From the IMG/VR virus record IMGVR_UViG_2713896729_000005: a DNA stretch of 27,673 nt. The stretch is one strand, 5' to 3'. The position numbers and the translations under genes were made by a program. Under the pieces are notes generated by a model. The model saw nothing but the letters and a program-made list of their open reading frames with translations, ran no database searches and was not told the DNA's origin. Shown here in pieces: positions 3,946 through 27,673 of this stretch (position 1 is its first letter; each line of letters begins with the position of its first letter). The stretch comes from a virus. Its lineage: Duplodnaviria; Heunggongvirae; Uroviricota; Caudoviricetes.

Positions 3946-4167
3946 TCACTTCGAACCTCTCTGTTTACTGATAAGCTCCAGATCTTGCTGGCAACTGGCA
4001 CAAGTCCGACAACCCTGAACGGCCAGTCGTCTTCGTTCATCTATCGGATCGCCACACTCACAACAATGAGTGGCAGATATAGCCTGGTGGTTCAGGCGGC
4101 GCATTTTTATTGCTGTGTTGCGCTGTAATTCTTCAATTTCTGATGCTGAATCAATTATGTCTGCCAT
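3946..4167 (-). CDS. TraR/DksA-family C4 zinc-finger protein (lambda orf73-like)
   Basis: 73-aa ORF with CCECGDPIDERRRLAVQGCRTCASCQ four-cysteine motif typical of TraR/DksA. Confidence 0.8.
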   Translation of the reverse strand: MADIIDSASEIEELQRNTAIKMRRLNHQAISATHCCECGDPIDERRRLAVQGCRTCASCQQDLELISKQRGSK

Positions 4168-4265
4168 CTTTCATTAATCCCTGAATTGTTGGTTAATACG
4201 CTTGAGGGTGAATGCGAATAATAAAAAAGGAGCCTGTAGCTCCCTGATGATTTTGCTTTTCATGT

Positions 4266-4547
4266 TCACCGTTCCTTAAAGACGCCGTTCAACATGCCGA
4301 TCGCCAGGCTTAAATGAGTCGGTGTGAATCCCATCAGCGTTACCGTTTCGCGGTGCTTCTTTAGTACGCTACGGCAAATGTCATCGACGTTTTTATCCGG
4401 AAACTGCTGTCTGGCTTTTTTGATTTCAGAATTAGCCTGACGGGCAATGCTGCGAAGGGCGTTTTCTTGCTGAGGTGTCATTGAACAAGCCCCATGTCGG
4501 CAAGCATAAGCACACAGAATATGAAGCCCGCTGCCAGAAAAATGCAT
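4266..4547 (-). CDS. Small early-left protein of the lambda exo-xis region (orf61-like); start uncertain
   Basis: ORF in pL operon orientation between TraR-like gene and orf63-like gene; an internal ATG giving 71 aa (MTPQQENALRSIARQ...) may be the true start. Confidence 0.55.
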   Translation of the reverse strand: MHFSGSGLHILCAYACRHGACSMTPQQENALRSIARQANSEIKKARQQFPDKNVDDICRSVLKKHRETVTLMGFTPTHLSLAIGMLNGVFKER

Positions 4548-4557
4548 TCAGTGGTTG

Positions 4558-4749
4558 TCATACCTGGTCTCTCTCATCTGCTTCTGCTTTCGCCACCATC
4601 ATTTCCAGCTTTTGTGAAAGGGATGCGGCTAACGTATGAAATTCTTCGTCTGTTTCTACTGGTATTGGCACAAACCTGACTCCAATTTGAGCGAGGCTAT
4701 GTGCCATCTCGATACTCGTTCTTAATTCAACGGGAGATGCTTTGTGCAT
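4558..4749 (-). CDS. Small early-left protein, lambda orf63-like
   Basis: 63-aa [26 protein letters not shown]... matching remembered lambda orf63. Confidence 0.7.
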   Translation of the reverse strand: MHKASPVELRTSIEMAHSLAQIGVRFVPIPVETDEEFHTLAASLSQKLEMMVAKAEADERDQV

Positions 4750-4910
4750 ACAGCTCCCCGTTTATTATTTATCTCCTCAGCCAGCCGCTGGGCTTTCAGC
4801 GGATTTCGGATAACAGAAAGGCCGGGAAATACCCAGCCTCGCTTTGTAACGGAGTAGACGAAAGTGATCGCGCCTACCCGGATATTATCGTGAGGATGCT
4901 TCATTGCCAT
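4722..4910 (-). CDS. Small early-left protein immediately downstream of exo (lambda orf60a/orf61-family position)
   Basis: 62-aa [34 protein letters not shown]..., overlaps exo stop; syntenic with lambda. Confidence 0.65.
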
Positions 4911-5581
4911 TGCTCCCCATATACAAAACCAATTTCAGCCAGTGCCTCGTCCATTTTTTCGATGAACTCCGGCACCATCTCGTCAAAACTCGCCATGTAC
5001 TTTTCATTCCGCTCAACCACGACGTAATGCAGGCCTTCACGCTTCATGCGCGGGTCATAGTTGGCAAAGTACCAGGCATCTTTTCGCGTCACCCACATGC
5101 TGTACTGCACCTGGGCCATGTAAGCCGATTTTATTGCCTCGAAACCACCGAGCCGGAATTTCATGAAATCCCGGGAGGTAAACGGGCATTTCAGTTCAAG
5201 GCCGTTGCCGTCACTGCATAAACCATCGGGAGAGCAGGCGGTGCGCATATTTTCGTCGCGATAGATGATCGGGGATTCAGTAATATTCACGCCGGAAGTG
5301 AATTCAAACAGGGTTCTGGCGTCGTTCTCGTACTGTTTTCCCCAGGCCAGCGCCTTAGCATTAACTTCCGGAGCCACACCGGTGCAAACCTCAGCCAGCA
5401 GGGTGTGGAAGTAGGACATTTTCATGTCAGGCCACTTCTTTCCTGAGCGGGGCTTTGCTATCACGTTGTGAACTTCTGAAGCGGTGATGACGCCGAGCCG
5501 TAATTTGTGCCATGCATCATCCCCCTGTTCGACAACTCTCACGTCGATCCCGGTACGCTGCAGGATAATGTCCGGTGTCAT
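4901..5581 (-). CDS. exo: Lambda exonuclease (Red-alpha), 5'-3' dsDNA exonuclease
   Basis: 226-aa translation [65 protein letters not shown]... matches lambda Exo. Confidence 0.95.
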
Positions 5582-6363
5582 GCTGCCACCTTCTGCTCAG
5601 TGGCTTTCTGTTTAAGGAATCCAAGAGCTTTCACTGCTTCGGCCTGTGTCAGTTCTGACGATGCGCGAATGTCGCGGCGAAATATCTGGGAACAGAGCGG
5701 CAATAAGTCGTCATCCCATGTTTTATCCAGGGCGATCAGCAGAGTGTTAATCTCCTGCATGGTTTCATCGTTAACCGGAGTGATGTCGCGTTCCGGCTGA
5801 CGTTCTGCAGTGTATGCAGTATTTTCGACAATGCGCTCGGCTTCATCCTTGTCATAGATACCAGCAAATCCGAAGGCCAGACGGGCACACTGAATCATGG
5901 CTTTATGCCGTAACATCCGTTTGGGATGCGACTGCCACGGCCCCGTGATTTCTCTGCCTTCGCGGGTTTTGAATGGTTCGCGGCGGCATTCATCCATCCA
6001 CTCGGTAACGCAGATCGGATGATTGCGGTCTTTGCGGTAAATCCGGCATGTGCAGGATTCGTTGTCCTGTTCAAAGTCCATGCCGTCAAACTGCTGGTTT
6101 TCGTTGATGATGCGGGACCAGCCATCAACGCCCACCACCGGAACGATGCCGTTCTGCTTATCAGGGAAGGCGTAAATTTCTTTCGTCCACGGATTAAGAC
6201 CGTACTGGTTGGCGACGATCAGCAATGCGATGAACTGCGCATCGCTGGCATCACCTTTAAATGCCGTCTGGCGAAGAGTGGTGATCAGTTCCTGTGGGTC
6301 GACAGAATCCATGCCGACTCGTTCAGCCAGCTTCCCAGCCAGCGTTGCGAGTGCTGTACTCAT
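5578..6363 (-). CDS. bet: Lambda Bet (Red-beta) single-strand annealing protein
   Basis: 261-aa translation [66 protein letters not shown]... matches lambda Bet; overlaps exo start. Confidence 0.95.
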
Positions 6364-6368
6364 CCGTT

Positions 6369-6665
6369 TTATACCTCTGAATCAATATCAACCTGGTGGT
6401 GAGCAATGGTTTCAACCATGTACCGGATGTGTTCTGCCATGCGCTCCTGAAACTCAACATCGTCATCAAACGCACGGGTAATGGCTTTTTTGCTGACCCC
6501 GTGGCGTTGCAAATGATCGATGCATAGCGATTCAAACAGGTGCTGGGGCAGGCCTTTTTCCATGTCGTCTGCCAGTTCTGCCTCTTTCTCTTCACGGGCG
6601 ATCTGCTGGTAGTGACGCGCCCAGCTCTGAGCCTCAAGACGATCCTGAATGTAATAAGCGTTCAT
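6369..6665 (-). CDS. gam: Gam (98-aa GamS form), RecBCD inhibitor
   Basis: 98-aa [59 protein letters not shown]...; the longer GamL N-terminal extension is not in frame here. Confidence 0.9.
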
Positions 6666-6740
6666 GGCTGAACTCCTGAAAATGGCTGTGAAAATATCGC
6701 CCGCGAAATGCCAGGCTGATTAGGAAAACAGGAAAGGGGA

Positions 6741-6947
6741 TTAGTGATTCAGGCCGTTACCGCGTCCGTCGAGAAAAACTTCTACGAGCAAATCACGGGT
6801 ATAAGTGCGCTCGATGCCGCGATGCAGATAAAGCCGTCCGCGTAAATTAGCTGATGCAGTCCAGGTACCATCTTTGTGTTTGACCAGCATTCCTGGCATG
6901 ACCGCACCGCGATTAACGGTCTGCGTTCCGTAATGTTGATGAACCAT
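6741..6947 (-). CDS. KilR-like putative host cell-division inhibitor
   Basis: C-terminal 68 aa of the 136-aa ORF ([68 protein letters not shown]) align by eye with Rac KilR (shared ASAN...LY...VFL.R.G pattern); good RBS (CAGGAG) before this internal ATG. Confidence 0.55.
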
Positions 6948-7168
6948 AAAAACTCCTGCCCGTAAGCTGGGCTGCTGAACATATAGAGACTTCTGCGCGT
7001 ATTCAGGCGGTGGATGGCCGCCGGTTGTCATAACTAAGCCGCCTCGTTGAAGCGACTGAGGTATAAAGTGTTGTGTTGATTTCAGCTGGTCACACCGACG
7101 TTCACGCGTCCGTTTCACCCCTCGCACTCCCCGAAGCCTGCTGAAATTCAAACTGCGGATCTAAGCGG

Positions 7169-7220
7169 TCATCGCAACGGTGAAACAGGTGGTTACCGTA
7201 TCGTTGTGTCGTTGCGATGA
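7169..7220 (-). promoter_or_regulatory. 11-bp perfect inverted repeat (TCATCGCAACG ... CGTTGCGATGA, 30-nt loop) in the leader of the leftward early transcript
   Basis: Seen directly in sequence, between the operator cluster and the Kil-like gene; function unknown. Confidence 0.35.
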
Positions 7221-7224
7221 ATTT

Positions 7225-7290
7225 AATTTAAAACTATAGTTGTTTTATCGTCAACAACAAAAGTTGTTTTGTCGGTTGTTTTAAATATAA
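7225..7290. promoter_or_regulatory. Leftward operator/promoter region (OL-like) with repeated AAAAC...GTTGTTTT sites
   Basis: Sites AAAACTATAGTTGTTTT (7230-7246), AACAAAAGTTGTTTT, CGGTTGTTTT; the 17-mer is nearly identical to a site in the cI-cro intergenic region (8784-8800, opposite orientation). Confidence 0.5.
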
Positions 7291-7394
7291 CTGGTTGTAT
7301 TTAGGATGGATTTATTTTGTGACTTGCATCGCATAGCGATAACTGAAGTGAGGTGTGGTGGTTTTTTGGACGGTATGAGTTATGAGGGGGAGGA

Positions 7395-7420
7395 AAAGAA
7401 AACCCGGCGCGGTTGCCGGG
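7395..7420 (-). terminator. Intrinsic terminator downstream of the lipoprotein gene
   Basis: GC-rich hairpin CCCGGC-GCGGTT-GCCGGG 9 nt after the stop, followed on the minus strand by a T-rich run. Confidence 0.6.
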
Positions 7421-7428
7421 TATGATTA

Positions 7429-7809
7429 TCAGTCAGCCCAACCTGATTTCGAGTTTATTTGGGTTTCTGACATTGTGTATTTCTTAATCGTGTCATCGTT
7501 AAAAAGAATAGTAAGTTCTTTTTTCGTACCGTTCGTTCCATTATGGAATAATCCATAGAATGGAATAAAAGTGGTGCCATTAACTTTTACTTTTGCAAAG
7601 GCGTACTTCCAGATCTCGTTTCCACTGTCAGTATATGAAACAGCATCAGGAGAACCAAAGTAAGATTTAACCTCATTCTTGGTTGTTTTACCTTCCTGAA
7701 GTTTAGACTGGACACTAATTTCAGTTTCATTTTTGAGTTGCTGGTTGCCTGAAGAAGCACACCCAGCCAATACAGATGCCATCATGGCAGCGATTAGGAT
7801 TTTTCTCAT
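7429..7809 (-). CDS. Hypothetical secreted lipoprotein (126 aa) in the immunity region
   Basis: Signal peptide plus lipobox MRKILIAAMMASVLAGC; AT-rich; located between the repressor gene and OL, with its own terminator. Confidence 0.75.
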   Translation of the reverse strand: MRKILIAAMMASVLAGCASSGNQQLKNETEISVQSKLQEGKTTKNEVKSYFGSPDAVSYTDSGNEIWKYAFAKVKVNGTTFIPFYGLFHNGTNGTKKELTILFNDDTIKKYTMSETQINSKSGWAD

Positions 7810-7824
7810 TTTATGTTTCCATTC

Positions 7825-7830
7825 ATTATA
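7825..7830 (-). promoter_or_regulatory. Consensus -10 hexamer TATAAT (minus strand) 15 nt upstream of the lipoprotein start codon
   Basis: Sequence only; no convincing -35 element identified. Confidence 0.3.
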
Positions 7831-8038
7831 ATCAGAAACATCTTAACATAATGATTCGAAATAAAAACCGCTACGAGATAGGGGGACATTTTGCTGACAG
7901 TAGCAACAAATCTCAGCTAACAACGAGAATATTTACTGAAATATGCAAACAGATTTGGCGTTCTTATAGAGAATTTAGTGCAATATCTAATCCGAGTGGT
8001 ATAAACCTTAACCTTCGCTCCCTTAAGTCGTAGATAAA

Positions 8039-8728
8039 TTAACCATGCTTCCTGTACGTCTGCGGCATGCTTCCAATGACCTTACCGAATATGAACACCC
8101 GGTTCATCTCGTCTTTCTCGATCGGGTCCCACGGCGAGTAGCTCTTGTTATCAGAGATAACCAGCAGCTTATCCTTCATCATTTGAAGACGTTTTACATG
8201 GGCAGTGTCGTCGTACAGAAACGCATAGATGCCATCACCGTCGAAAGATTTAACAGTGATATCAACGAACAGCAGGTCACCTGGTTCGATCGTCCCTGAC
8301 ATGCTGTCACCTCGCACGTTAATGATGCGGATATTTTCCGCCTTCCTGCCATCGAACATGTGACGAGCATCGTCAAACGAGTACTCAACCGAGCGTAGAA
8401 CTTCTACAAACTCACGGTTGATTACACCTGGCCCGGCACTGACTTCTATATCAAGAACGTCAATTTTGAAGTATTTGGAATGGCTGACAGTTGATTGTAT
8501 TGGTTGCACTGTACTGTCTGACATATTTCCAACGCCAGAAGATAACCATTCTGCGCGCACACCCAAAGCGTTCGCGATCTCCACGATTTTAGTTGTTTGG
8601 TTAGCTTTCCCTGTTTCGATTTTCTGAATAGCAGCCTGGCTAACCCCGACCAAATCCCCAAGCGCCTTTTGTGTAAGGCCTCGCGCTAATCTGGCTTCTT
8701 TAAGTCTTTCTGAGAGTGTTGTTTTCAT
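8039..8728 (-). CDS. CI-type prophage repressor (N-terminal XRE-family HTH, C-terminal S24 LexA-like autopeptidase domain)
   Basis: 229-aa ORF; HTH segment LTQKALGDLVGVSQAAIQKIETGK; S24 catalytic motifs GDSM and downstream Lys (HVKRL); divergent from cro. Confidence 0.85.
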   Translation of the reverse strand: MKTTLSERLKEARLARGLTQKALGDLVGVSQAAIQKIETGKANQTTKIVEIANALGVRAEWLSSGVGNMSDSTVQPIQSTVSHSKYFKIDVLDIEVSAGPGVINREFVEVLRSVEYSFDDARHMFDGRKAENIRIINVRGDSMSGTIEPGDLLFVDITVKSFDGDGIYAFLYDDTAHVKRLQMMKDKLLVISDNKSYSPWDPIEKDEMNRVFIFGKVIGSMPQTYRKHG

Positions 8729-8832
8729 AGATCAAATGTACAACCAAGGTTTTATTTCATCAAACGAAAATGGTTGTTGACTAAAAACAACCATAGTTTT
8801 AATCTTTATTCGGATTAACCACGGAGGTTGTT
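8729..8832. promoter_or_regulatory. Rightward operator/promoter region (OR-like) between repressor and cro
   Basis: Divergent intergenic region with repeated sites ACAACCAAGGTTTT, AAAATGGTTGTT, AAAACAACCATAGTTTT (8784-8800). Confidence 0.55.
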
Positions 8833-9063
8833 ATGAACCCAGCAATCAAAACAGCGATCAATATCGTTGGTTCACAAAAGAAACTAGGCGATGCCTGCGA
8901 AGTTTCACAGCAGGCCGTCTATAAGTGGCTTCACAACAAAGCAAAGGTATCCCCTGAACATGTCGGCAGCATTGTTACGGCTACTGGTGGAGTTGTGAAG
9001 GCATACCAGATTCGCCCGGATCTTCCGAAGTTGTTTCCACACACCGAAAAGAACGCAGCTTAA
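8833..9063 (+). CDS. Cro-like HTH regulator (YdaS/DicC-like)
   Basis: 76-aa ORF with strong RBS (GGAGG); position and size typical of cro; sequence pattern resembles YdaS-family proteins. Confidence 0.7.
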   Translation: MNPAIKTAINIVGSQKKLGDACEVSQQAVYKWLHNKAKVSPEHVGSIVTATGGVVKAYQIRPDLPKLFPHTEKNAA

Positions 9064-9132
9064 ATTTCCATTTCACGCTCTTTAACAATAAGCAATCAAC
9101 TTAACAGTCAATTCAAACTAAAGGAGTCAATT

Positions 9133-9672
9133 ATGCAACCACTTACATACCAACAGACTAGCGGATTTATTCCGACTGCGGTGATAAATCGTTCTCAAAC
9201 AAAACAAGCTCCAGGCCACGAAAAAATCCGTGATGCCGTCCGCGCCTGGTCGGCTGTAGATAATCAGGATGTCGTTGCCGCACTCATTGTGAATGAGTAT
9301 CGGGAGCAGGGCGACGGCACCATCGATTTCCCTGATGATGTCAGCCGTGCACGCCAGAAGCTGTTCCGCTTCCTCGATAACAAATTCGATTCTGAAAAAT
9401 ACCGAAATAACGTGCGTGAACTGACCCCGGCAATTCTGGCGGTACTACCGCTGGAATATCGCGGTTACCTGGTTGAGCAGGATAGCTTCATGACTCGGTT
9501 GGCTGAAATGGAAAAGGAACTCAGTGAGGCAAAACAGGCTGTCATTCTCAACGCACCACGCCACCAGAAACTGAAGGAAATGAGTGAAGGTATTGTGTCG
9601 ATGTTTCGTGTGGACCCGGATCTGGCTGGTCCATTAATGGCGATGGTGACCACCATGCTGGGGGCAATATGA
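9133..9672 (+). CDS. YdaT-like protein (CII-position regulator)
   Basis: 179-aa ORF with AAGGAG RBS, immediately after cro and before the O gene; shares a HE.IR.A..AW region with the second YdaT-like protein in this window (20318..20743). Confidence 0.55.
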   Translation: MQPLTYQQTSGFIPTAVINRSQTKQAPGHEKIRDAVRAWSAVDNQDVVAALIVNEYREQGDGTIDFPDDVSRARQKLFRFLDNKFDSEKYRNNVRELTPAILAVLPLEYRGYLVEQDSFMTRLAEMEKELSEAKQAVILNAPRHQKLKEMSEGIVSMFRVDPDLAGPLMAMVTTMLGAI

Positions 9673-9758
9673 CAGGTTCAGAAATGGCGAAAGTCGGTCT
9701 GCGGGAACAGAACCGACTTTCAGGTGCAAATCGTAACACACTCATTGCGGGAGGAATT

Positions 9759-10688
9759 ATGGCAAACACTGCTGAGATATTCAATTTTCCAGTGCCGGAT
9801 GCGGCACAAAAGGAGCCGCGCGTGGCAGATCTCGATGATGGTTATACGCGCATTGCAAATGAGTTGCTGGAAGCTGTGATGCTGGCCGGATTAACACAGC
9901 ACCAGCTTCTGGTCTTCCTGGCTGTCATGCGCAAAACATATGGCTTTAATAAAAAACTGGATTGGGTGAGCAACGAGCAACTTTCCGAGTTGACCGGGAT
10001 ATTGCCGCACAAGTGTTCTGCTGCAAAAAGTGTTCTGGTAAAGCGTGGGATTTTTATTCAGAGCGGGCGGAATATCGGCATTAATAATGTGGTCAGTGAA
10101 TGGTCAACATTACCCGAATCAGGTAAGAAAAATAAAGTTTACCTGAAAGAGGTAAATTTACCTGAATCAGGTAAGAAAAGTTTACCCAAATCAGGTAAAG
10201 GCACTTACCCGAATCAGGTAAACACAAAATACAAACTAACAAAAGACAATATAAAACCTTTTTCGTCCGAGAATTCTGGCGAATCCTCTGACCAACCAGA
10301 AAACGATCTTCCTGTGGAGAAACCAGATGCTGCAATTCAGAGCGGCAGCAGGTGGGGGACAGCAGAAGACCTGACCGCCGCAGAGTGGATGTTTGACATG
10401 GTGAAGACCATCGCGCCATCAGCCAGAAAACCGAATTTTGCAGGGTGGGCTAACGATATCCGCCTGATGCGTGAACGTGACGGCCGTAACCACCGCGACA
10501 TGTGCGTGCTGTTCCGCTGGGCATGCCAGGACAACTTCTGGTCCGGTAACGTGCTAAGTCCGGCCAAACTCCGCGACAAGTGGACCCAACTCGAAATCAA
10601 CCGTAACAAGCAACAGGCTGGCGTGATAGCCGGAAAATCAAAACTCGACCTGACAAACACTGACTGGATTTACGGGGTGGATTTATGA
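9759..10688 (+). CDS. O: Replication initiator O (lambda O-like; iteron-binding N-domain, P-interacting C-domain)
   Basis: Translation from ATG 9759 (GGAGG RBS) shows ADLDDGY, LAVMRKTYGFNK and the lambda O C-terminal segment ...WACQDNFWSGNVLSPAKLRDKWTQLEINRNKQQAGV...DLTNTDWIYGVDL; the ORF track extends 30 codons upstream (9669). Confidence 0.85.
   Translation: MANTAEIFNFPVPDAAQKEPRVADLDDGYTRIANELLEAVMLAGLTQHQLLVFLAVMRKTYGFNKKLDWVSNEQLSELTGILPHKCSAAKSVLVKRGIFIQSGRNIGINNVVSEWSTLPESGKKNKVYLKEVNLPESGKKSLPKSGKGTYPNQVNTKYKLTKDNIKPFSSENSGESSDQPENDLPVEKPDAAIQSGSRWGTAEDLTAAEWMFDMVKTIAPSARKPNFAGWANDIRLMRERDGRNHRDMCVLFRWACQDNFWSGNVLSPAKLRDKWTQLEINRNKQQAGVIAGKSKLDLTNTDWIYGVDL
10110..10262. repeat. ori: Phage replication origin: five iterons of about 19 bp (TTACC[CT]NAATCAGGTAA) followed by an AT-rich segment, inside the O gene
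   Basis: Direct repeats at 10110-10126, 10138-10156, 10157-10175, 10181-10199, 10204-10222, each an inverted repeat; AT-rich stretch 10223-10262. Confidence 0.8.
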
Positions 10689-11386
10689 AAAACATCGCCG
10701 CACAGATGGTTAACTTTGACCGTGAGCAGATGCGCCGGATCGCCAACAACATGCCGGAACAGTACGACGAAAAGCCGCAGGTACAACAGGTAGCGCAGAT
10801 CATCAATGGTGTGTTCAGCCAGTTACTGGCAACTTTCCCGGCGAGCCTGGCTAACCGGGACCAGAACGAACTGAACGAAATCCGCCGCCAGTGGGTTCTG
10901 GCTTTCCGGGAAAACGGGATCACCACGATGGAACAGGTTAACGCAGGAATGCGCGTAGCCCGTCGGCAGAATCGACCATTCCTGCCATCACCCGGGCAGT
11001 TTGTTGCCTGGTGCCGGGAAGAAGCATCCGTTACCGCCGGGCTGCCAAACGCCAGCGAGCTGGTTGATATGGTTTACGAGTATTGCCGGAAACGTGGCCT
11101 GTATCCAGATGCAGAGTCTTATCCGTGGAAATCAAACGCGCACTACTGGCTGGTTACCAACCTGTATCAGAACATGCGGGCCAATGCGCTGACTGATGCG
11201 GAATTACGGCGCAAGGCTGCCGATGAACTGGCCTGTATGACAGCGCGAATTAACCGTGGTGAGGCGATACCTGAACCAGTAAAACAACTTCCTGTCATGG
11301 GCGGGAGACCGCTTAATCGTGTTCAGGCTCTGGCGAAGATCGCAGAAATCAAAGCGAAGTTTGGGCTGAAAGGAGCAAGTGTATGA
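10685..11386 (+). CDS. P: Replication protein P (DnaB helicase loader)
   Basis: 233-aa translation MKNIAAQMVNFDREQMRRIANNMPEQYDEKPQVQQVAQIINGVFSQLLATFPASLANRDQNELNEIRRQW... matches lambda P. Confidence 0.95.
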   Translation: MKNIAAQMVNFDREQMRRIANNMPEQYDEKPQVQQVAQIINGVFSQLLATFPASLANRDQNELNEIRRQWVLAFRENGITTMEQVNAGMRVARRQNRPFLPSPGQFVAWCREEASVTAGLPNASELVDMVYEYCRKRGLYPDAESYPWKSNAHYWLVTNLYQNMRANALTDAELRRKAADELACMTARINRGEAIPEPVKQLPVMGGRPLNRVQALAKIAEIKAKFGLKGASV

Positions 11387-11670
11387 CGGGCAAAGAGGCA
11401 ATTATTCATTACCTGGGGACTCATAAGAACTTCTGTGCGCAGGACGTTGCCGCGGTAACAGGCGCAACCGTAACCAGCATAAATCAGGCTGCGGCTAAAA
11501 TGGCGCGGTCAGGAATCCTGGTCGTTGATGGTAAGGTCTGGCGAACGGTGTATTACCGGTTCGCTACCAGAGAAGAACGGGAAGGAAAGGTGAGCACGAA
11601 TCTGATTTTTAAGGAGTGTCGTCAAAGTGCCGCGATGAAGCGGGTGTTGGCTTTATATGGAAGAGAGTAG
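11383..11670 (+). CDS. ren: Ren (Rex exclusion escape protein)
   Basis: 95-aa translation MTGKEAIIHYLGTHKNFCAQDVAAVTGATVTSINQAAAKMARSGILVVDGKVWRTVYYRFATREEREGK... closely matches lambda Ren. Confidence 0.9.
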   Translation: MTGKEAIIHYLGTHKNFCAQDVAAVTGATVTSINQAAAKMARSGILVVDGKVWRTVYYRFATREEREGKVSTNLIFKECRQSAAMKRVLALYGRE

Positions 11671-12040: not shown

Positions 12041-13459
12041 TTAGAAAATAATGTTTGCTATATCCGAGATAGCATTTAAAGAACCTCTGTGGTCACTTCC
12101 TGTTTTAGGTAAAATATAGGAATATCGAGGGTCTTCATTATATGTTAACTTCCAGTGTTTTCCATCGCTTGACGCACTGAAACCTAAGTCCTTTAAATTT
12201 CTTTGTGTTGCGCTATCCATGCTTCTGTAACCTGTTAAAGTCCTTTTAAGTAATTGGCGGCGACTCTCGGTTTCTTTATTGTATTCATTATTGGCAATTA
12301 GGGATGATAAGATATGGTAGCTTCTACCAAATTCATTTTTATTTTTTATGGCAGTTTTTAGTGCGTCAATAATTATATTTTTGATTTCTCCATCAAAAAA
12401 ATCAGTCTCTTCACCAGCATTAAGCACAATGCTTCCTTGGGCTGAAGCTTGTGATTGAAGAGTGCGTACTCTGTGCTCTAAAGAGGAGATCTTATGCTTA
12501 AGATCTTCTATTTGGTCATCTTTCGCAACATTATCGGCTTCGTAAAGCGCCATCAGTTCGCGTGTGTATTCTCCTCTTTCTTTGAGTGAGTTAATAGAGT
12601 CTTTCGTTTTTCTGGTTTGTATCTCACTCCATCCACTATCTGAGACAGGAGCCATTGTAGTCGTAGCTCTTACAACATCATCAAATAACTCATCTTCAAA
12701 TTCTTTTGCGGTTTTCTCACCACGGCGATAAAAACTGATATTTTGACCCCGTGGCCAATAGATACCAACAGCACCAGCATAGGCATTTTTAGCATTTGTC
12801 TCATTTTTTAGCTTAATAGAAAATAGTCTATTGCTAGGCTCAATTAATACATGTGCTAATCCGCATACCTTTCTTGCAAGGCGTTCTGGGATGATATTGT
12901 GAGCATGTTCATTAAAAAAATACTTGGAGCTAACGTATATTATTGGTAGTCTGTTGTCAGTTTCACCATTTATAACTTTAGCTGCTATATTTAAATGTTC
13001 ATCAGTATCATCTAAGGAATGAGGTTCGACTGACACCTTGAAAATATCATCAAGACCACCAGAAAATTTATCAATCAATCTCATAACAACTAATGGTTTC
13101 TTAGGTTGCGGGGCTAGATAAGCTGCATCTTGGCTTACAACGCTAGATTCCACCTGAATCCACATGGTATCAGTTTTGAGATTTTTATTAATTGAAATAT
13201 CTGTTACCCATTTGTGTGGCTCAGATATTTTCGAATACCTAAAACAGCCTAAACTAGTATCTTTGTTTTTATAAGTTATTATATCAATTCTTTCATTTTT
13301 AGACTCTATGAAGTACTCCTCGCTTTTATAATCACATACTAATTGTGCTGGAATAAAAGTTGTATGTGGTGAGTCGTTTACCCAAGAAAAACATTCATTA
13401 AAGATCTCAGCTAGAGATGTGGAGTTTGAAACATAAAAACCAGTTGAGAAATATTTCAT
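12041..13459 (-). CDS. Hypothetical 472-aa protein of unrecognised family; accessory gene inserted between ren and ninB
   Basis: Long uninterrupted ORF in a visibly AT-rich segment; RBS (AAGGA) 8 nt before ATG; central coiled-coil-like segment (...DQIEDLKHKISSLEHRVRTLQSQASAQ...); no Walker A, HNH or other motif I recognise. Confidence 0.8.
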   Translation of the reverse strand: MKYFSTGFYVSNSTSLAEIFNECFSWVNDSPHTTFIPAQLVCDYKSEEYFIESKNERIDIITYKNKDTSLGCFRYSKISEPHKWVTDISINKNLKTDTMWIQVESSVVSQDAAYLAPQPKKPLVVMRLIDKFSGGLDDIFKVSVEPHSLDDTDEHLNIAAKVINGETDNRLPIIYVSSKYFFNEHAHNIIPERLARKVCGLAHVLIEPSNRLFSIKLKNETNAKNAYAGAVGIYWPRGQNISFYRRGEKTAKEFEDELFDDVVRATTTMAPVSDSGWSEIQTRKTKDSINSLKERGEYTRELMALYEADNVAKDDQIEDLKHKISSLEHRVRTLQSQASAQGSIVLNAGEETDFFDGEIKNIIIDALKTAIKNKNEFGRSYHILSSLIANNEYNKETESRRQLLKRTLTGYRSMDSATQRNLKDLGFSASSDGKHWKLTYNEDPRYSYILPKTGSDHRGSLNAISDIANIIF

Positions 13460-15279: not shown

Positions 15280-16329
15280 TTAGGCCAGCACACCAATTGC
15301 CAGCGCGTGATCGATAAATCGAAAAATCAGCTCCAGTTGGGAGCCATACTTCTCTTCAAATGCCACGGTATCCGTATGCAGTTCGTCGTGATGCTTTCTG
15401 CATAAAGGCAACACAAAAAGATCATGTGCTTTGGTTCCCATTCCGCCCTGCCCGTGACCAATCAGATGATGCGGATCGTCGGCTGGCATACCGCAGCAAG
15501 CACACGGCTGTGTCTTCACCCAGCGAGTGTATTTCTCCTTAACCCAGCGGCGACGTTTAGGTAGCTTCATGAAAGATTCCGGAGACTCAGGATCAACGGT
15601 GATGCTTACCACCGTCCTTTCCTGTAGTGGGTGTTGTTCCTGGTGGGCGTGAGGCAACAGTGCAAGATTTTTTGTGCGCTGTTTCAATATGCTGGTGGCG
15701 GTCTGCTCTCCCGGTACGATGTCGCTTTCGCGGTACATTGAGCGGATTTTTTCCGCTGGTAATCCCAGCGAGCGACGTAATACCGCTTCAGGTAGCGCAT
15801 CCGCCACCTGATTTCGGACCGCCCACCAGGATAATTCAGCCAGAGATAATTCACGCTCCTGCGTACCGCTTATTGCGTGACCGATGACGTCAATCATCCA
15901 TGCTGACAGGTTTTGATGAGCAAGTTGCTCGAGTGATTCGGATGTCTGGTCACGCAGCTGGTTGTCGCAGTGCCAGCACAACACCATTGCGCCGGTACCA
16001 TAACGGTGAATGACGGTTTCACTGTGGTGATAATCGCCGTGTGGCCACTGGCAGGATTTAATATGGCGCAACAGCCAGTCAGACAATGCACCAGCACCAC
16101 CAGCAGCACGAATCACCCGTGCGTTACTGAAAAACGGCAGCAATGTTTTGTCTTCCACCAGCGGCTGGCGAACGGCAGGAACGACCCCGGACGGCAGATT
16201 ACGCATGCTTTTCGGTTCCGGCTCCACCAGTACCCGGGTATTGTGGAATACCGGCATGGATTCACGGCCCGGCTTAACGATCACCACCCCGAGTTCCGGT
16301 ACCAGAACAGGTCGAAGTAATACCCGCAC
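15280..16329 (-). CDS. YdfU-like prophage protein with cysteine/histidine-rich C-terminal region
   Basis: 349-aa ORF; C-terminal CACCGMPADDPHHLIGHGQGGMGTKAHDLFVLPLCRKHHDELH; stop codon abuts the gap. Confidence 0.65.
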   Translation of the reverse strand: MRVLLRPVLVPELGVVIVKPGRESMPVFHNTRVLVEPEPKSMRNLPSGVVPAVRQPLVEDKTLLPFFSNARVIRAAGGAGALSDWLLRHIKSCQWPHGDYHHSETVIHRYGTGAMVLCWHCDNQLRDQTSESLEQLAHQNLSAWMIDVIGHAISGTQERELSLAELSWWAVRNQVADALPEAVLRRSLGLPAEKIRSMYRESDIVPGEQTATSILKQRTKNLALLPHAHQEQHPLQERTVVSITVDPESPESFMKLPKRRRWVKEKYTRWVKTQPCACCGMPADDPHHLIGHGQGGMGTKAHDLFVLPLCRKHHDELHTDTVAFEEKYGSQLELIFRFIDHALAIGVLA

Positions 16330-20317: not shown

Positions 20318-20743
20318 TCAATGTACTGCCACAGCATTTCCTGCCGGGCCACCACGGTTCATCTGATTGAAACCGGCGATTGCCACTGCGACAAAATCAT
20401 CAGCGTCTCTCACCAGTCGCTCCCGCGTCTCCACCAGCTCCCGAAAATAAGCTGAACTGTGGCTGCGCATTCTGGCCACCAGCAAAGGTGGCATTGCCTT
20501 TTCGATCGCTGGTAACAACGCCTGAATTTTTTCAACTGCATCAGGGGTGTCTTTCTCTACCCAGCGGAAAATTTTCTGGGTATTGCGAGCCAGGGCTTCC
20601 GGATGGCTGTCGTCATACAGTTCCGGGAACGTCATTCCCAGCTCGAAATACGCTTTGGTAATTTTCGCAGCCGGTACTTTTTCGCCGTCCGGATGCGCCC
20701 AGGCATTCATCGCCATGCGGATGTGTTCATGCTTGATTTTCAT
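20318..20743 (-). CDS. YdaT-family protein (CII-position regulator)
   Basis: 141-aa ORF beginning MKIKHEHI and ending AVH, matching the remembered start and end pattern of Rac YdaT. Confidence 0.7.
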   Translation of the reverse strand: MKIKHEHIRMAMNAWAHPDGEKVPAAKITKAYFELGMTFPELYDDSHPEALARNTQKIFRWVEKDTPDAVEKIQALLPAIEKAMPPLLVARMRSHSSAYFRELVETRERLVRDADDFVAVAIAGFNQMNRGGPAGNAVAVH

Positions 20744-21061: not shown

Positions 21062-21700
21062 ATGAGCAAGCAAACTATATCTGAACGCATAACCCAACGT
21101 ATGCATGCGCTAAACCTGAAAGGCAAAGACCTTGTCAATGGCACTGGCGCATCAAAAGGCTCCGTAAGTCAATGGATGAACGGTGGAGGAGCGCCGTCCT
21201 CGCGTTACATAAGTTCACTGGCAAAAATATTGAAAGTAAACGAAAATTGGCTTCTTAATGGAGGAGAGTTAAATACAGGTGATTCGCTTGATCTATCTTT
21301 ACCGCCGATAAAAACGGTTCCGCTACTATCACTTCAGCAGGCAGCAAGCTGGAGTGATTATATGAAAAATTCCTCAATAACCTCTTGTGTGCAGCTTGTC
21401 GGAGAAATCCCGGTCAATACCTTTGCAGTTGTTCTAGAGAGTGACAGTATGTCAACATCTGGTGGGGGAGTTTCCATCCCAAATGGTTCAACAGTTTTTG
21501 TTGATCCCGATCGAACCGTACAACCAGGAAATATTGTCCTTGCCTTACCCAAAGGGACCACAACACCTGTCATTCGTAAACTGGAGATAGAAGGGCCGGA
21601 TATTCTTTTAGTCCCCACGAATCCTCGCTACCCTTCAATTATGCTGGATGATCTATCTTGCATATTGGGCGTATGCTTTAAAATTCAACAAGATATTTAA
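21062..21700 (+). CDS. CI-type repressor (HTH plus S24 peptidase), heteroimmune to the first prophage repressor
   Basis: 212-aa ORF; S24 motifs ESDSM and downstream Lys (IRKL); N-terminal HTH; sequence unlike the repressor at 8039..8728. Confidence 0.8.
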   Translation: MSKQTISERITQRMHALNLKGKDLVNGTGASKGSVSQWMNGGGAPSSRYISSLAKILKVNENWLLNGGELNTGDSLDLSLPPIKTVPLLSLQQAASWSDYMKNSSITSCVQLVGEIPVNTFAVVLESDSMSTSGGGVSIPNGSTVFVDPDRTVQPGNIVLALPKGTTTPVIRKLEIEGPDILLVPTNPRYPSIMLDDLSCILGVCFKIQQDI

Positions 21701-23470: not shown

Positions 23471-23562
23471 AACAGTTCCGTAATAAATATCCGGTTTCAT
23501 TCTTATATGCCAGCAATGGCAGGGATTTGTTCATCCTTAAATCTGTCATGAGGTTAAAACAA

Positions 23563-26034
23563 ATGAGTAAAGTCTTTATTTGCGCCGCTATTCCTGACGA
23601 ACTGGCAACAAGGGAAGAAGGCGCTGTGGCTGTAGCCACAGCCATTGAAGCTGGCGACGAACGCCGTGCTCGAGCAAAATTTCACTGGCAATTCCTGGAA
23701 CATTATCCGGCTGCTCAGGACTGCGCTTATAAATTTATTGTCTGCGAGGATAAACCTGGCATACCCCGCCCTGCCCTCGATTCATGGGATGCTGAATATA
23801 TGCAGGAAAACCGCTGGGATGAGGAGTCTGCTTCTTTTGTCCCGGTTGAGACTGAATCCGATCCGATGAACGTCACTTTTGACAAGCTGGCCCCTGAAGT
23901 ACAGAACGCTGTCATGGTTAAGTTCGACACATGTGAAAACATCACCGTTGATATGGTTATTAGCGCACAGGAATTGTTGCAGGAAGACATGGCAACATTC
24001 GACGGACATATCGTTGAAGCGTTGATGAAAATGCCAGAAGTTAACGCCATGTATCCGGAGCTTAAGTTGCACGCCATTGGGTGGGTTAAGCATAAATGTA
24101 TTCCTGGTGCTAAATGGCCCGAAATTCAGGCAGAGATGCGCATCTGGAAAAAACGTCGCGAAGGTGAACGCAAGGAAACCGGAAAATACACGTCTGTTGT
24201 TGATCTCGCCCGCGCCAGAGCCAATCAACAGTACACTGAAAATTCAACAGGAAAAATCAGCCCGGTCATTGCTGCCATTCATCGCGAATACAAGCAGACA
24301 TGGAAAACACTGGATGACGAACTGGCCTACGCTCTCTGGCCTGGTGATGTGGATGCCGGAAACATTGACGGCAGCATCCATCGCTGGGCAAAAAATGAAG
24401 TTATCGACAACGACCGCGAAGACTGGAAGCGTATCTCGGCATCAATGCGCAAACAGCCTGATGCCCTTCGCTACGACCGCCAAACTATTTTTGGCCTTGT
24501 CCGTGAGCGTCCGATCGACATTCACAAAGATCCCGTAGCACTGAACAAATATATCTGCGAATACCTGACGACAAAGGGCGTGTTTGAGAATGAAGAAACA
24601 GACCTGGGCACTGTTGATGTTCTCCAGTCATCAGAAACACAAACTGATGCAGTGGAAACTGAGGTATCTGATATCCCAAAAAATGAAACCGCGCCGGAAG
24701 CTGAACCATCTGTAGAGCGTGAGGGGCCGTTCTATTTCCTCTTCGCAGATAAGGACGGAGAAAAATACGGTCGCGCAAACAAACTTTCTGGTCTGGATAA
24801 GGCACTGGCTGCTGGCGCCACTGAAATCACAAAAGAAGAATATTTTGCCCGAAAAAATGGCACATACACGGGCTTACCGCAAAATGTAGATACCGCTGAA
24901 GATTCAGAACAACCAGAGCCGATAAAAGTTACCGCTGACGAAGTAAACAAAATTATGCAGGCAGCCAATATCATCCAGCCTGACGCCGATAAGTTGCTTG
25001 CTGCATCACGTGGTGAATTTGTTGAAGGGATTAGTGACCCGAATGATCCGAAATGGGTTAAGGGGATCCAGACCCGCGATTCTGTGAACCAGAACCAGCA
25101 TGAATCGGAACGGAACTACCAAAAAGCGGAACAAAACAGCCCAAATGCGTTACAAAACGAGCCAGAAACGAAACAGCCTGAATCAGTGGCGCAACAGGAA
25201 GTGGAAAAAGTCTGCACCGCCTGCGGTCAGACCGGCGGCGGCAACTGCCCTGATTGTGGCGCGGTAATGGGCGACGCAACATACCAGGAAACATTCGATG
25301 AAGAGTATCAGATTGAAGTTCAGGAAGATGATCCGGAGGAAATGGAAGGCGCTGAACATCCACACAAGGAGAACACTGGCGGCAATCAGCATCACGATAG
25401 CGATAATGAAACTGGCGAGACGGCAGATCACTCAATTAAGGTGAACGGTCATCAAGAAATCACATCCACCAGCAGGACGTGTGACCATCTAATGATCGAC
25501 CTTGAAACCATGGGAAAAAATCCTGATGCCCCGATCATCTCAATAGGTGCAATATTTTTCGATCCGCAAACCGGAGATATGGGACCGGAATTTAGTAAGA
25601 CTATCGATCTGGAAACTGCTGGCGGAGTCATTGATCGGGACACCATTAAATGGTGGCTTAAGCAATCACGCGAAGCGCAATCTGCCATTATGACCGATGA
25701 AATCCCGTTAGATGATGCACTGTTACAATTGTGGGAATTTATCGACGAAAACTCCGGTGAATTTTTTGTTCAGGTCTGGGGAAATGGAGCCAACTTCGAC
25801 AACACGATTTTGCGCCGTTCATACGAACGGCAGGGGATCCCCTGCCCGTGGCGTTACTACAACGATCGCGATGTACGCACAATCGTTGAGCTGGGGAAAG
25901 CCATAGACTTCGATGCCAGAACGGCTATTCCATTCGAAGGTGAGCGCCATAATGCACTTGATGACGCCCGTTACCAGGCAAAATACGTTTCAGTTATCTG
26001 GCAAAAACTGATCCCGAGTCAGGCTGATTCTTAA
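23563..26034 (+). CDS. Large YdfE/RecE-like protein (823 aa) with internal C4 zinc ribbon and C-terminal DEDDh 3'-5' exonuclease domain
   Basis: Start at ATG 23563 (MSKVFICAAIP..., GAGG RBS); zinc ribbon CTACGQTGGGNCPDCG; exonuclease motifs IDLET, VWGNGANFD and HNALDD near the C-terminus. Confidence 0.8.
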   Translation: MSKVFICAAIPDELATREEGAVAVATAIEAGDERRARAKFHWQFLEHYPAAQDCAYKFIVCEDKPGIPRPALDSWDAEYMQENRWDEESASFVPVETESDPMNVTFDKLAPEVQNAVMVKFDTCENITVDMVISAQELLQEDMATFDGHIVEALMKMPEVNAMYPELKLHAIGWVKHKCIPGAKWPEIQAEMRIWKKRREGERKETGKYTSVVDLARARANQQYTENSTGKISPVIAAIHREYKQTWKTLDDELAYALWPGDVDAGNIDGSIHRWAKNEVIDNDREDWKRISASMRKQPDALRYDRQTIFGLVRERPIDIHKDPVALNKYICEYLTTKGVFENEETDLGTVDVLQSSETQTDAVETEVSDIPKNETAPEAEPSVEREGPFYFLFADKDGEKYGRANKLSGLDKALAAGATEITKEEYFARKNGTYTGLPQNVDTAEDSEQPEPIKVTADEVNKIMQAANIIQPDADKLLAASRGEFVEGISDPNDPKWVKGIQTRDSVNQNQHESERNYQKAEQNSPNALQNEPETKQPESVAQQEVEKVCTACGQTGGGNCPDCGAVMGDATYQETFDEEYQIEVQEDDPEEMEGAEHPHKENTGGNQHHDSDNETGETADHSIKVNGHQEITSTSRTCDHLMIDLETMGKNPDAPIISIGAIFFDPQTGDMGPEFSKTIDLETAGGVIDRDTIKWWLKQSREAQSAIMTDEIPLDDALLQLWEFIDENSGEFFVQVWGNGANFDNTILRRSYERQGIPCPWRYYNDRDVRTIVELGKAIDFDARTAIPFEGERHNALDDARYQAKYVSVIWQKLIPSQADS

Positions 26035-26377: not shown

Positions 26378-27673
26378 ATGAGAGAAATTGAAATGAAATA
26401 TCCGACAGGCGTGGAAAACCATGGAGGGAAATTACGTATCTGGTTTGTTTATAAAGGCGTAAGAGTCAGGGAAAACCTGGGGGTTCCTGACACAGCAAAA
26501 AACAGGCGCGTTGCAGGTGAGCTACGCGCCTCTGTTTGTTACGCAATAAAAACTGGTGTTTTCGACTATGCAAAACAGTTTCCCTCCTCACGCAATCTGG
26601 AAAAATTTGGTGAGACCCGACAAGATTTAACCATAAAAGAACTGGCTGAAAAATTTCTGGCACTGAAAGAAACTGAAGTCGCAAAAACATCACTCAACAC
26701 ATACCGTGCCGTCATCAAAAATATCCTGAGCATAATCGGTGAAAAAAATCTTGCCTCATCGATTAATAAAGAAAAATTACTGGAGGTTCGTAAAGAGCTA
26801 CTGACTGGATACCAGATCCCCAAAAGTAACTATATTGTTACACAACCAGGGAGATCGGCTGTAACTGTAAATAATTACATGACAAATCTTAACGCCGTGT
26901 TCCAGTTTGGTGTTGATAACGGTTACCTGGCAGATAACCCGTTTAAGGGGATCTCGCCATTAAAGGAATCAAGAACCATTCCGGATCCTCTTTCGCGGGA
27001 GGAATTCATCCGTCTTATCGATGCGTGCAGAAATCAGCAAGCCAAAAATTTATGGTGTGTTTCTGTTTATACTGGCGTTCGCCCTGGTGAGCTGTGTGCA
27101 CTTGGATGGGAGGACATAGATCTGAAAAATGGAACAATGATGATCAGGAGAAATTTAGCAAAAGACCGTTTCACGGTACCAAAAACACAGGCGGGAACCA
27201 ATCGGGTCATTCATCTTATTAAGCCAGCAATCGACGCTCTCCGGAGTCAGATGACATTAACGAGACTGAGCAAAGAGCATATCATTGATGTTCACCTCAG
27301 AGAGTATGGCAGAACAGAAAAACATAAATGCACCTTTGTTTTTCAACCTGAAGTGTCAGCGAGAGTAAAAAATTATGGTGACCATTTTACCGTTGACTCA
27401 ATAAGGCAGATGTGGGACGCAGCGATAAAACGTGCCGGACTCCGCCATCGAAAATCATATCAGTCGAGACATACTTATGCCTGCTGGTCGCTGACAGCTG
27501 GTGCTAACCCGGCATTTATAGCAAACCAGATGGGCCATGCAGATGCGCAAATGGTATTTCAGGTATACGGAAAATGGATGTCTGAAAACAATAATGCACA
27601 GGTAGCTTTGTTAAATACACAGTTAAGCGAGTTTGCCCCAACCATGCCCCATAACGAAGCAATGAAAAATTAA
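26378..27673 (+). CDS. Tyrosine integrase of the second prophage
   Basis: 431-aa ORF (alternative start at 26393) with C-terminal catalytic region ...HTYACWSLTAGANPAFIANQMGHADAQMVFQVYGKWM...; stop codon is the last three bases of the window. Confidence 0.85.
   Translation: MREIEMKYPTGVENHGGKLRIWFVYKGVRVRENLGVPDTAKNRRVAGELRASVCYAIKTGVFDYAKQFPSSRNLEKFGETRQDLTIKELAEKFLALKETEVAKTSLNTYRAVIKNILSIIGEKNLASSINKEKLLEVRKELLTGYQIPKSNYIVTQPGRSAVTVNNYMTNLNAVFQFGVDNGYLADNPFKGISPLKESRTIPDPLSREEFIRLIDACRNQQAKNLWCVSVYTGVRPGELCALGWEDIDLKNGTMMIRRNLAKDRFTVPKTQAGTNRVIHLIKPAIDALRSQMTLTRLSKEHIIDVHLREYGRTEKHKCTFVFQPEVSARVKNYGDHFTVDSIRQMWDAAIKRAGLRHRKSYQSRHTYACWSLTAGANPAFIANQMGHADAQMVFQVYGKWMSENNNAQVALLNTQLSEFAPTMPHNEAMKN

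Follow-up and report, generated by a model that had tools for sequence, protein, structure and literature searches.

The subject of this analysis is a lipoprotein gene in the immunity region of a lambdoid prophage, carried by the 27,673-nucleotide (nt) DNA stretch of the IMG/VR virus record IMGVR_UViG_2713896729_000005; this whole stretch is hereafter called the window. The interval 7429-8038 contains a single real gene, located on the minus strand at 7429..7809 (ATG start, stop codon included) and encoding a prolipoprotein of 126 amino acids (aa), plus an AT-rich spacer of 229 base pairs (bp; 7810..8038, minus strand) that separates its start from the stop codon of a cI-type repressor gene. 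This repressor gene (8039..8728, minus strand; HTH_3 and Peptidase_S24 domains) lies upstream on the same strand, while the downstream boundary of the slot is formed by the leftward operator and promoter region (OL/PL; 7219..7304, minus strand), which combines operator half-site repeats with a promoter-like TTGACG-N18-TAAATT. OL/PL carries four copies of AAACAAC[CT] and mirrors the rightward region OR/PR (8762-8811), with inverted matches of 28 and 26 nt. The lipoprotein gene is a moron, i.e. a self-contained cassette of candidate promoter, coding sequence and terminator in the cI-to-PL slot. Escherichia phage PhiR26_1 (PV340555.1) shares 98.8% identity over positions 3988-11661 of the window and 99.9% in the interval 7429-8038.

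Translation of the gene predicts a signal peptide (residues 1-16) followed by a lipid-modified Cys17 (7759..7809, minus strand). The N-terminus, MRKILIAAMMASVLAG|CASS, shows a basic n-region, a hydrophobic core and the lipobox L14-A15-G16-C17 (LAGC; 7770-7759, minus strand), of which Cys17 is invariant in an alignment of 37 diverse homologues. The mature lipoprotein comprises about 110 aa (about 12 kDa). Because the +2 residue is Ala, and not Asp, the protein should be sorted to the outer membrane according to the Lol rule established for E. coli. The gene differs in base composition from its surroundings, as is expected of a moron: its guanine-plus-cytosine (GC) fraction is 0.38, and that of the spacer 0.34, against 0.47 for both cI and the whole window. 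The first-pass annotation, made from the letters alone, had described an AT-rich gene for a 126-aa lipoprotein with a LAGC lipobox between a CI-type repressor gene and the leftward operators, and the open reading frame (ORF), the lipobox and the GC fraction all confirm that description.

Conservation at the sequence level indicates that this is a genuine gene and no chance ORF. There are 228 close relatives, and an exhaustive profile search returned 1,848 clusters (at 50% identity) with E<=1e-3, of which 485 at E<=1e-10. Compared with homologues from other genera, the nonsynonymous divergence (dN) is low (0.10-0.23), synonymous sites are saturated and nucleotide identity is 65-75%. Since dN is far below the saturated synonymous divergence (dS), the lipoprotein evolves under strong purifying selection. 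The E. coli copy is no recent import from the genera compared. A second ORF on the plus strand (7776-8033, 85 aa), largely in the spacer, was considered and rejected as spurious: the spacer is not conserved outside the lineage, and tblastx against the fetched loci returned nothing.

The genomic contexts of the gene were surveyed in the 80 best IMG/VR loci with a close homologue, which were retrieved with the alignment of the closer homologues. In 55 of these loci the gene is located just 3' of a cI-type repressor gene and on the same strand, i.e. in the immunity region. Among them, 23 are near-identical to the window and 32 are found behind at least four repressor types, so that the placement likened in the first-pass annotation to the rexAB position of lambda is borne out and proves to be general. 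Many immunity-region copies start only 48 nt past the cI stop codon and therefore presumably form one operon with cI. A second recurrent placement, found in 21-23 of the 80 loci, is in the tail module, between a DUF6246 gene (tail chaperone position) and the tape-measure gene. It was found in Serratia and Klebsiella prophages and, judged by position relative to the tape-measure gene, also in Phytobacter, Raoultella, Rouxiella, Biostraticola and Buttiauxella. These tail-module copies often adjoin other variable morons, such as SocA and YafO.

Further placements were identified. Citrobacter Rac-like prophages have the repressor first, then variable genes, the lipoprotein, a 68-aa gene on the opposite strand and finally KilR. 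The Salmonella phages S107, S135 and S137 carry a homologue with 82% identity, which in S107 lies between cI and N. Single examples adjoin gtrABC-like genes as well as tail fibres (L037), or lie where a P2-like prophage ends (L029), beside an integrase in Pseudomonas phage D14L, and in a Modicisalibacter island together with AlpA, SLATT and TIR-STAND genes. All phages matched by the lipoprotein are temperate.

Several neighbouring genes recur in these loci. In most immunity-region loci the lipoprotein gene is followed, after 28-44 nt, by an oppositely oriented gene of 68-75 aa (phrog_3975 or phrog_3946, function unknown; e.g. L007 8413-8619 and L002 4423-4650, both minus strand), which is absent from the window. 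In L008, a 302-aa protein (7003-7911; phrog_4506, function unknown, without Pfam or PADLOC match) is encoded between the repressor and the lipoprotein gene, and phrog_4506 proteins occupy the slot in most of the Citrobacter prophage loci examined. In the Serratia loci L020-L023, the lipoprotein gene overlaps (ATGA) a gene for a 95-aa secreted protein (7381-7668; MKKKLSGIIILSLGFISLSSAASDD...) without Pfam or PHROG match, the pair being a two-gene envelope cassette ahead of the tape-measure gene.

It is highly improbable that the gene is silent or decaying cargo without a function in this prophage. Truncated copies do exist elsewhere (L039, L045) and the prophage in the window looks rearranged, but the ORF is intact, its signals are conserved and dN is far below dS. 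Moreover, among 5,426 complete E. coli genomes there are 69 in which 80% or more of a query comprising gene and spacer (7380-8040) is matched at 95-100% identity, always in the chromosome.

With respect to expression signals, the first-pass annotation had pointed to a consensus TATAAT upstream of the gene. This hexamer does occur on the coding strand (7830-7825, minus strand), but it was rejected as a promoter: it ends 15 nt from the ATG, a scan found no -35 element, and homologues have TGCAAT at this position. Since a transcription start placed accordingly would delete the ribosome-binding site GGAAA (7816..7820, minus strand; 6 nt before the ATG, with GGA kept in homologues), TATAAT is probably located inside the 5' leader. 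An extended -10 element, TGtTAAGAT (TGTTAAGAT; 7848-7840, minus strand), is the better promoter candidate, with a predicted start at about 7833-7832 and a leader of about 24 nt. This motif (TGnTAnnnT) forms the core of an upstream block of about 40 bp that is kept in E. coli, Salmonella, Citrobacter, Pseudocitrobacter, Scandinavium and Enterobacter loci. Of 55 distinct upstream regions, 32 have it at -38 to -51, while about 2% would be expected per region. The tail-module copies, whose upstream regions are unrelated in sequence, show the same type of motif 38-51 nt 5' of the ATG (TGCTACCAT, TGCTACGAT, TGTTAGGAT), and the loci lacking TGnTAnnnT are mostly those in which the gene starts 48 nt past the cI stop.

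Conservation of the spacer with other loci is restricted to its final 45 nt or so (local blastn and tblastx), and the same searches gave no support for the spacer being the leftover of a deleted gene. A 27-nt imperfect inverted repeat (7810-7867; 74% complementary, 4-nt loop) covers the candidate promoter, the TATAAT and the ribosome-binding site. Folded as RNA it reaches -12.1 kcal/mol (z = -2.1), and this hairpin could mask the ribosome-binding site in transcripts reading through from cI. A search of Rfam for structured RNA in 6600-9200 gave sub-threshold noise only.

A strong intrinsic terminator (7392..7421, minus strand) was identified 3' of the gene, consisting of a stem-loop (7421-7402) and a T-tract (7401-7392; TTTCTTTTCC). 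It has six G-C pairs and folds at -14.1 kcal/mol (z = -3.2), and none of 200 shuffled sequences folds as well. The terminator assigned to the gene at first pass is therefore real, but it is not exclusive to the gene, as the cI transcript would end there too. It would end the lipoprotein mRNA plus any cI read-through ahead of PL, as the counterpart of the lambda immunity-operon terminator. Terminator scan and folding found no terminator between cI and the lipoprotein gene in the window, whereas in many other loci a terminator hairpin precedes the conserved promoter block. Transcripts from the repressor promoter should consequently read into the gene and stop at 7402. As a moron the gene has a clear terminator and a candidate promoter deduced solely from the conserved extended -10 motif. 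Expression in the lysogen is strongly suggested by this arrangement, with transcription probably starting at the gene's own extended -10 promoter and in addition reaching it by read-through from the cI promoter.

The slot itself supports a role in defence. The interval between cI and N has been described as a hotspot for lysogen-expressed cargo sharing the repressor promoter, with rexAB as the lambda example (PMC8585504). In phage PhiR47_2, the cI product is identical to that of the window at 228 of 229 positions (99%) and the PL/kil backbone is the same, but the slot holds a different cargo, the PADLOC candidate PDC-M11A/B (E=2e-133 and 7e-52; L144 3229-4657), so that the lipoprotein gene is present or absent between otherwise similar genomes, as morons are. 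Phage PhiR5_1, which shares the PL/kil backbone, holds the PADLOC candidate PDC-M66A/B (L145 3257-4830). The cassettes of both phages are toxin-antitoxin-like, with two genes each, and are annotated GevT/GevA and HipA/HipD. In S107 the order of genes is cI, a BstA homologue (phrog_6287, E=6e-114; PADLOC BstA, E=9e-100) and the lipoprotein. The cI-to-PL slot is therefore a genuine hotspot of defence cargo, in agreement with the earlier expectation that it holds exclusion-type genes in related phages. The second placement of the family has a precedent as well, since gene 15 of HK97, the first moron described, encodes a superinfection-exclusion protein and lies in the slot before the tape-measure gene (PMC3594210).

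The family of the lipoprotein, which had not been recognised at first pass, was identified as phrog_3135. The match to this profile, of unknown function, is full-length (E=2.9e-48; residues 1-124 against positions 1-114 of 114). PhiR26_1 annotates the gene as "hypothetical protein / putative lipoprotein". In RefSeq, most genomes carry the protein under the name "outer membrane protein assembly factor BamE", and a recent one, which matches the gene region at 100%, has "SEN1984 family lipoprotein". NCBIfam release 20 returned no SEN1984 model, its matches being far below the curated cut-offs and mostly confined to the N-terminal signal-peptide region. Towards phrog_3135 and the SEN1984 family, no difference was found: these are the protein's own family, one without assigned function, and within it sequence identity across Enterobacterales genera is 65-89%. 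With Pfam BamE (PF04355), the protein scored 21.8 bits (E=1.6e-4), below the gathering threshold of 23.2, and similarly weak scores were obtained for 31 of 37 family members. A search of the PDB by sequence gave no significant match.

At the level of structure, an AlphaFold model built from 37 diverse members (mean pLDDT, the per-residue confidence, 83.6; core >93) predicts the alpha-alpha-beta-beta-beta fold typical of BamE. The predicted fold is BamE/OsmE/BLIP/BtiO-like, the top structural matches in the PDB are to BamE/BLIP-like proteins only, and Foldseek also matches "SmpA/OmlA" lipoproteins of the Pseudomonas temperate phages PP9W2 and B3. This fold is a scaffold for protein binding and inhibition in the periplasm. 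The motif FIPFYGLFHNG (residues 81-91), more conserved than any other in the family, lies inside a 13-residue insertion relative to E. coli BamE, within a family-specific beta1-beta2 hairpin insertion (residues 78-92, GTTFIPFYGLFHNGT; 7534..7578, minus strand) that was delimited by conservation, alignment with BamE and pLDDT. Its invariant columns are F81, I82, P83, Y85, G86, F88, N90 and G91, and P83 is nearly invariant even in distant members. With a pLDDT of 53-71 the loop is predicted to be flexible, and it is likely to be a binding surface.

Although the fold is common to both, the protein is not BamE. It shows 24% identity to E. coli BamE (hhalign probability 78%), the N-terminal segment of BamE cannot be aligned, and the family has an extra conserved N-terminal SGNxxLxxET segment in addition to the hairpin insertion. 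In E. coli K-12, bamE is located between recN and yfjF, while the lipoprotein gene is found in prophage slots and is thus prophage cargo rather than a recN-linked housekeeping gene. Orthology with BamE is ruled out by the sub-threshold Pfam score, the low identity, the 13-residue insertion and the prophage context. The protein belongs to a family of BamE-fold paralogues distinct from the housekeeping BamE, and the clear homology to a housekeeping lipoprotein that had been named as a possible objection to an exclusion role was not found. The same features weigh upon the proposal that the protein acts as a mimic of BamE and enters or perturbs the BAM machine, either aiding the assembly of phage outer-membrane proteins or shifting the conformation of BamA. 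The shared fold fits this proposal, but the divergence from BamE does not, and the surveyed loci show no consistent linkage to genes for phage outer-membrane proteins; we regard it as improbable.

What the position and the fold suggest, as the explanation that we tentatively put forward without granting it an even chance, is a periplasmic exclusion factor expressed in the lysogen and acting against other phages. The protein would be an outer-membrane-anchored binding module that faces the periplasm and interferes with the entry of incoming phages. Its loop FIPFYGLFHNG may bind the periplasmic face of a conserved outer-membrane protein serving as phage receptor, in the manner of Llp and Rtp45. 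Alternatively, the loop might bind a tail protein, e.g. the tape-measure protein, ejected by an incoming siphophage, in the manner of Ltp and presumably of HK97 gp15. Ltp is encoded in a lysogeny module, and its target is the tape-measure protein.

A working model is provided by Llp of T5, Rtp45 and Cor, which like the present protein are phage-encoded lipoproteins and which are anchored in the outer membrane's inner leaflet. Lipoproteins that face the periplasm are able to block a receptor from within: Llp binds FhuA on its periplasmic side and Rtp45 binds LptDE at the periplasmic interface, upon which extracellular loops are altered and the receptor-binding protein cannot bind (PMC12685063). 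Both differ from our protein in size (Rtp45 has about 6 kDa and Llp is also small, compared to about 12 kDa) and in being derived from virulent phages. Ltp of Streptococcus phage TP-J34 is, like the present protein, a lipoprotein of a temperate phage, and is described as the prototype of surface-exposed exclusion lipoproteins (PMC3952083); it differs by its Gram-positive host and unrelated fold. The likeness to HK97 gp15 is positional only: its gene is an independent cassette in the same slot as the tail-module homologues (PMC3594210), but the product is a small inner-membrane protein of the YebO family and no lipoprotein. With lambda rexAB and with bstA of BTP1, the lipoprotein gene shares the slot, the strand and a likely co-transcription with the repressor (PMC8585504). 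RexAB and BstA, in contrast, are cytoplasmic or inner-membrane abortive-infection systems, whereas the lipoprotein is exported, and searches of Pfam, PHROG and PADLOC found no homology to RexA, RexB or BstA, so that only the position is shared.

Several observations weigh against an exclusion role. The protein had no PADLOC match, and no PHROG, Pfam or PADLOC result pointed to homology with Cor, Llp or Rtp45; PHROG, Pfam and fold searches likewise detected no sequence or structural similarity to these three, to gp15 or to Ltp, the last of which was not compared directly. The gene is found with immunity modules more often than with tail or receptor-binding modules, and in this it differs from receptor-masking genes such as cor. 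A literature search retrieved no paper on the function of the family, and no phenotype, expression or localisation reported for any of its members. Finally, in Pseudovibrio and Robiginitomaculum the distant homologues (about 36-50% identity) have ordinary chromosomal surroundings, so that the ancestral role was probably a general envelope function.

Salmonella Enteritidis has one family member, SEN1984, on its excisable island ROD21. This uncharacterised ORF is listed as a hypothetical protein, and the sole remark on it is that Phyre2 finds it BamE-like (PMC10655114, PMC3198454). Its presence on this virulence-associated island also tells against exclusion, as it fits a role in host fitness almost as well. 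According to this alternative, the lipoprotein is a lysogenic-conversion factor for host fitness or virulence that strengthens or alters the envelope (serum, bile, antimicrobial-peptide or osmotic tolerance), comparable to lambda Bor/Iss, TraT and the stress lipoprotein OsmE. The plain chromosomal contexts of other members agree with it, but no phenotype has been reported for SEN1984 itself, the occupants of the slot in sister phages are defence candidates or BstA, and the recurrent position next to the tape-measure gene has a known precedent in exclusion. A role in host fitness is a serious contender that we nevertheless consider doubtful.

The BLIP-type scaffold could also serve a periplasmic immunity or inhibitor protein directed against an envelope-attacking enzyme of outside origin, such as a type VI secretion system (T6SS) effector, a bacteriocin, a lysozyme or other peptidoglycan hydrolase, or possibly the tail-tip hydrolases of incoming phages, against which Spackle of T4 acts. 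However, no effector or toxin gene is adjacent to the gene in any locus examined, and an immunity protein is usually variable and has its effector as a partner, in contrast to the high identity of this family across Enterobacterales genera. An inhibitor role is, in our view, quite unlikely.

The exclusion role can be taken further. Its family may be a class of its own, the third and a structurally distinct one among the exclusion lipoproteins that face the periplasm. With its aromatic loop, this BamE paralogue carried by phages would dock from the periplasmic side on an essential machine of the outer membrane, such as BamA/BAM, to which BamE itself binds, or LptDE, or would bind the ejected tape-measure protein, and would shut out phages (possibly also BamA-dependent contact-dependent toxins) without disabling the machine. 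This more specific proposal is speculative, and we hold it to be unlikely as it stands.

The remainder of the window provides the context of the cassette. The stretch is chromosomal, with a pectinesterase-family gene (ORF listed at 1-1284) and a lambda-type integrase (1419-2489) at one end. At 8833-9672, the positions of cro and cII are held by YdaS-like (76 aa) and YdaT-like (179 aa) genes, which are typical of Rac-type prophages; PhiR26_1 combines such genes with lambda-type recombination, replication and virion genes. In the region 6741-7225, no gene for an N-type antiterminator is found between PL (about 7225) and kil. Homology to Kil is limited to the C-terminal 77 aa or so of the 136-aa ORF in this region, and length calls differ, with 125 aa in PhiR26_1 and a 68-aa cell-division inhibitor in RefSeq. 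This leaves a leader of about 280 bp with a perfect inverted repeat of 11 bp (7169-7179 / 7210-7220). Downstream of ren, a 472-aa ORF (12041-13459, minus strand) has no Pfam match and a weak PADLOC match to HEC-07 (E=1e-9); PhiR26_1 has the defence gene PD-lambda-1 at roughly this position, where the window diverges from it. Past about 15.3 kb the window no longer matches PhiR26_1, and this part includes a DUF968 gene (15280-16329), another YdaT-like gene (20318-20743), another S24 repressor (21062-21700), an 835-aa protein (23527-26034) that has an Rv2179c-like exoribonuclease domain, and another integrase (26378-27673). This content points to two prophages or one rearranged prophage.

The gene analysed here is a well-delimited moron for a lipoprotein with the BamE fold, whose family is catalogued but blank as to function, and it is akin in kind to the envelope and exclusion lipoproteins of prophages. 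This family is common in Enterobacterales prophages, its close homologues recur in two classic exclusion or defence slots, and it is without an assigned function, although many genomes wrongly label it "BamE". Envelope-altering prophage genes decide which phages can infect a lysogen, and thereby bear on phage therapy and host range. If the lipoprotein does block phage entry, the very few periplasmic exclusion lipoproteins would be joined by one of new fold and, probably, of new target, and a simple single-gene marker would be at hand for predicting resistance. If it is instead a modulator of BAM or of envelope robustness, it would provide a phage-borne handle on an essential, drug-targeted machine.

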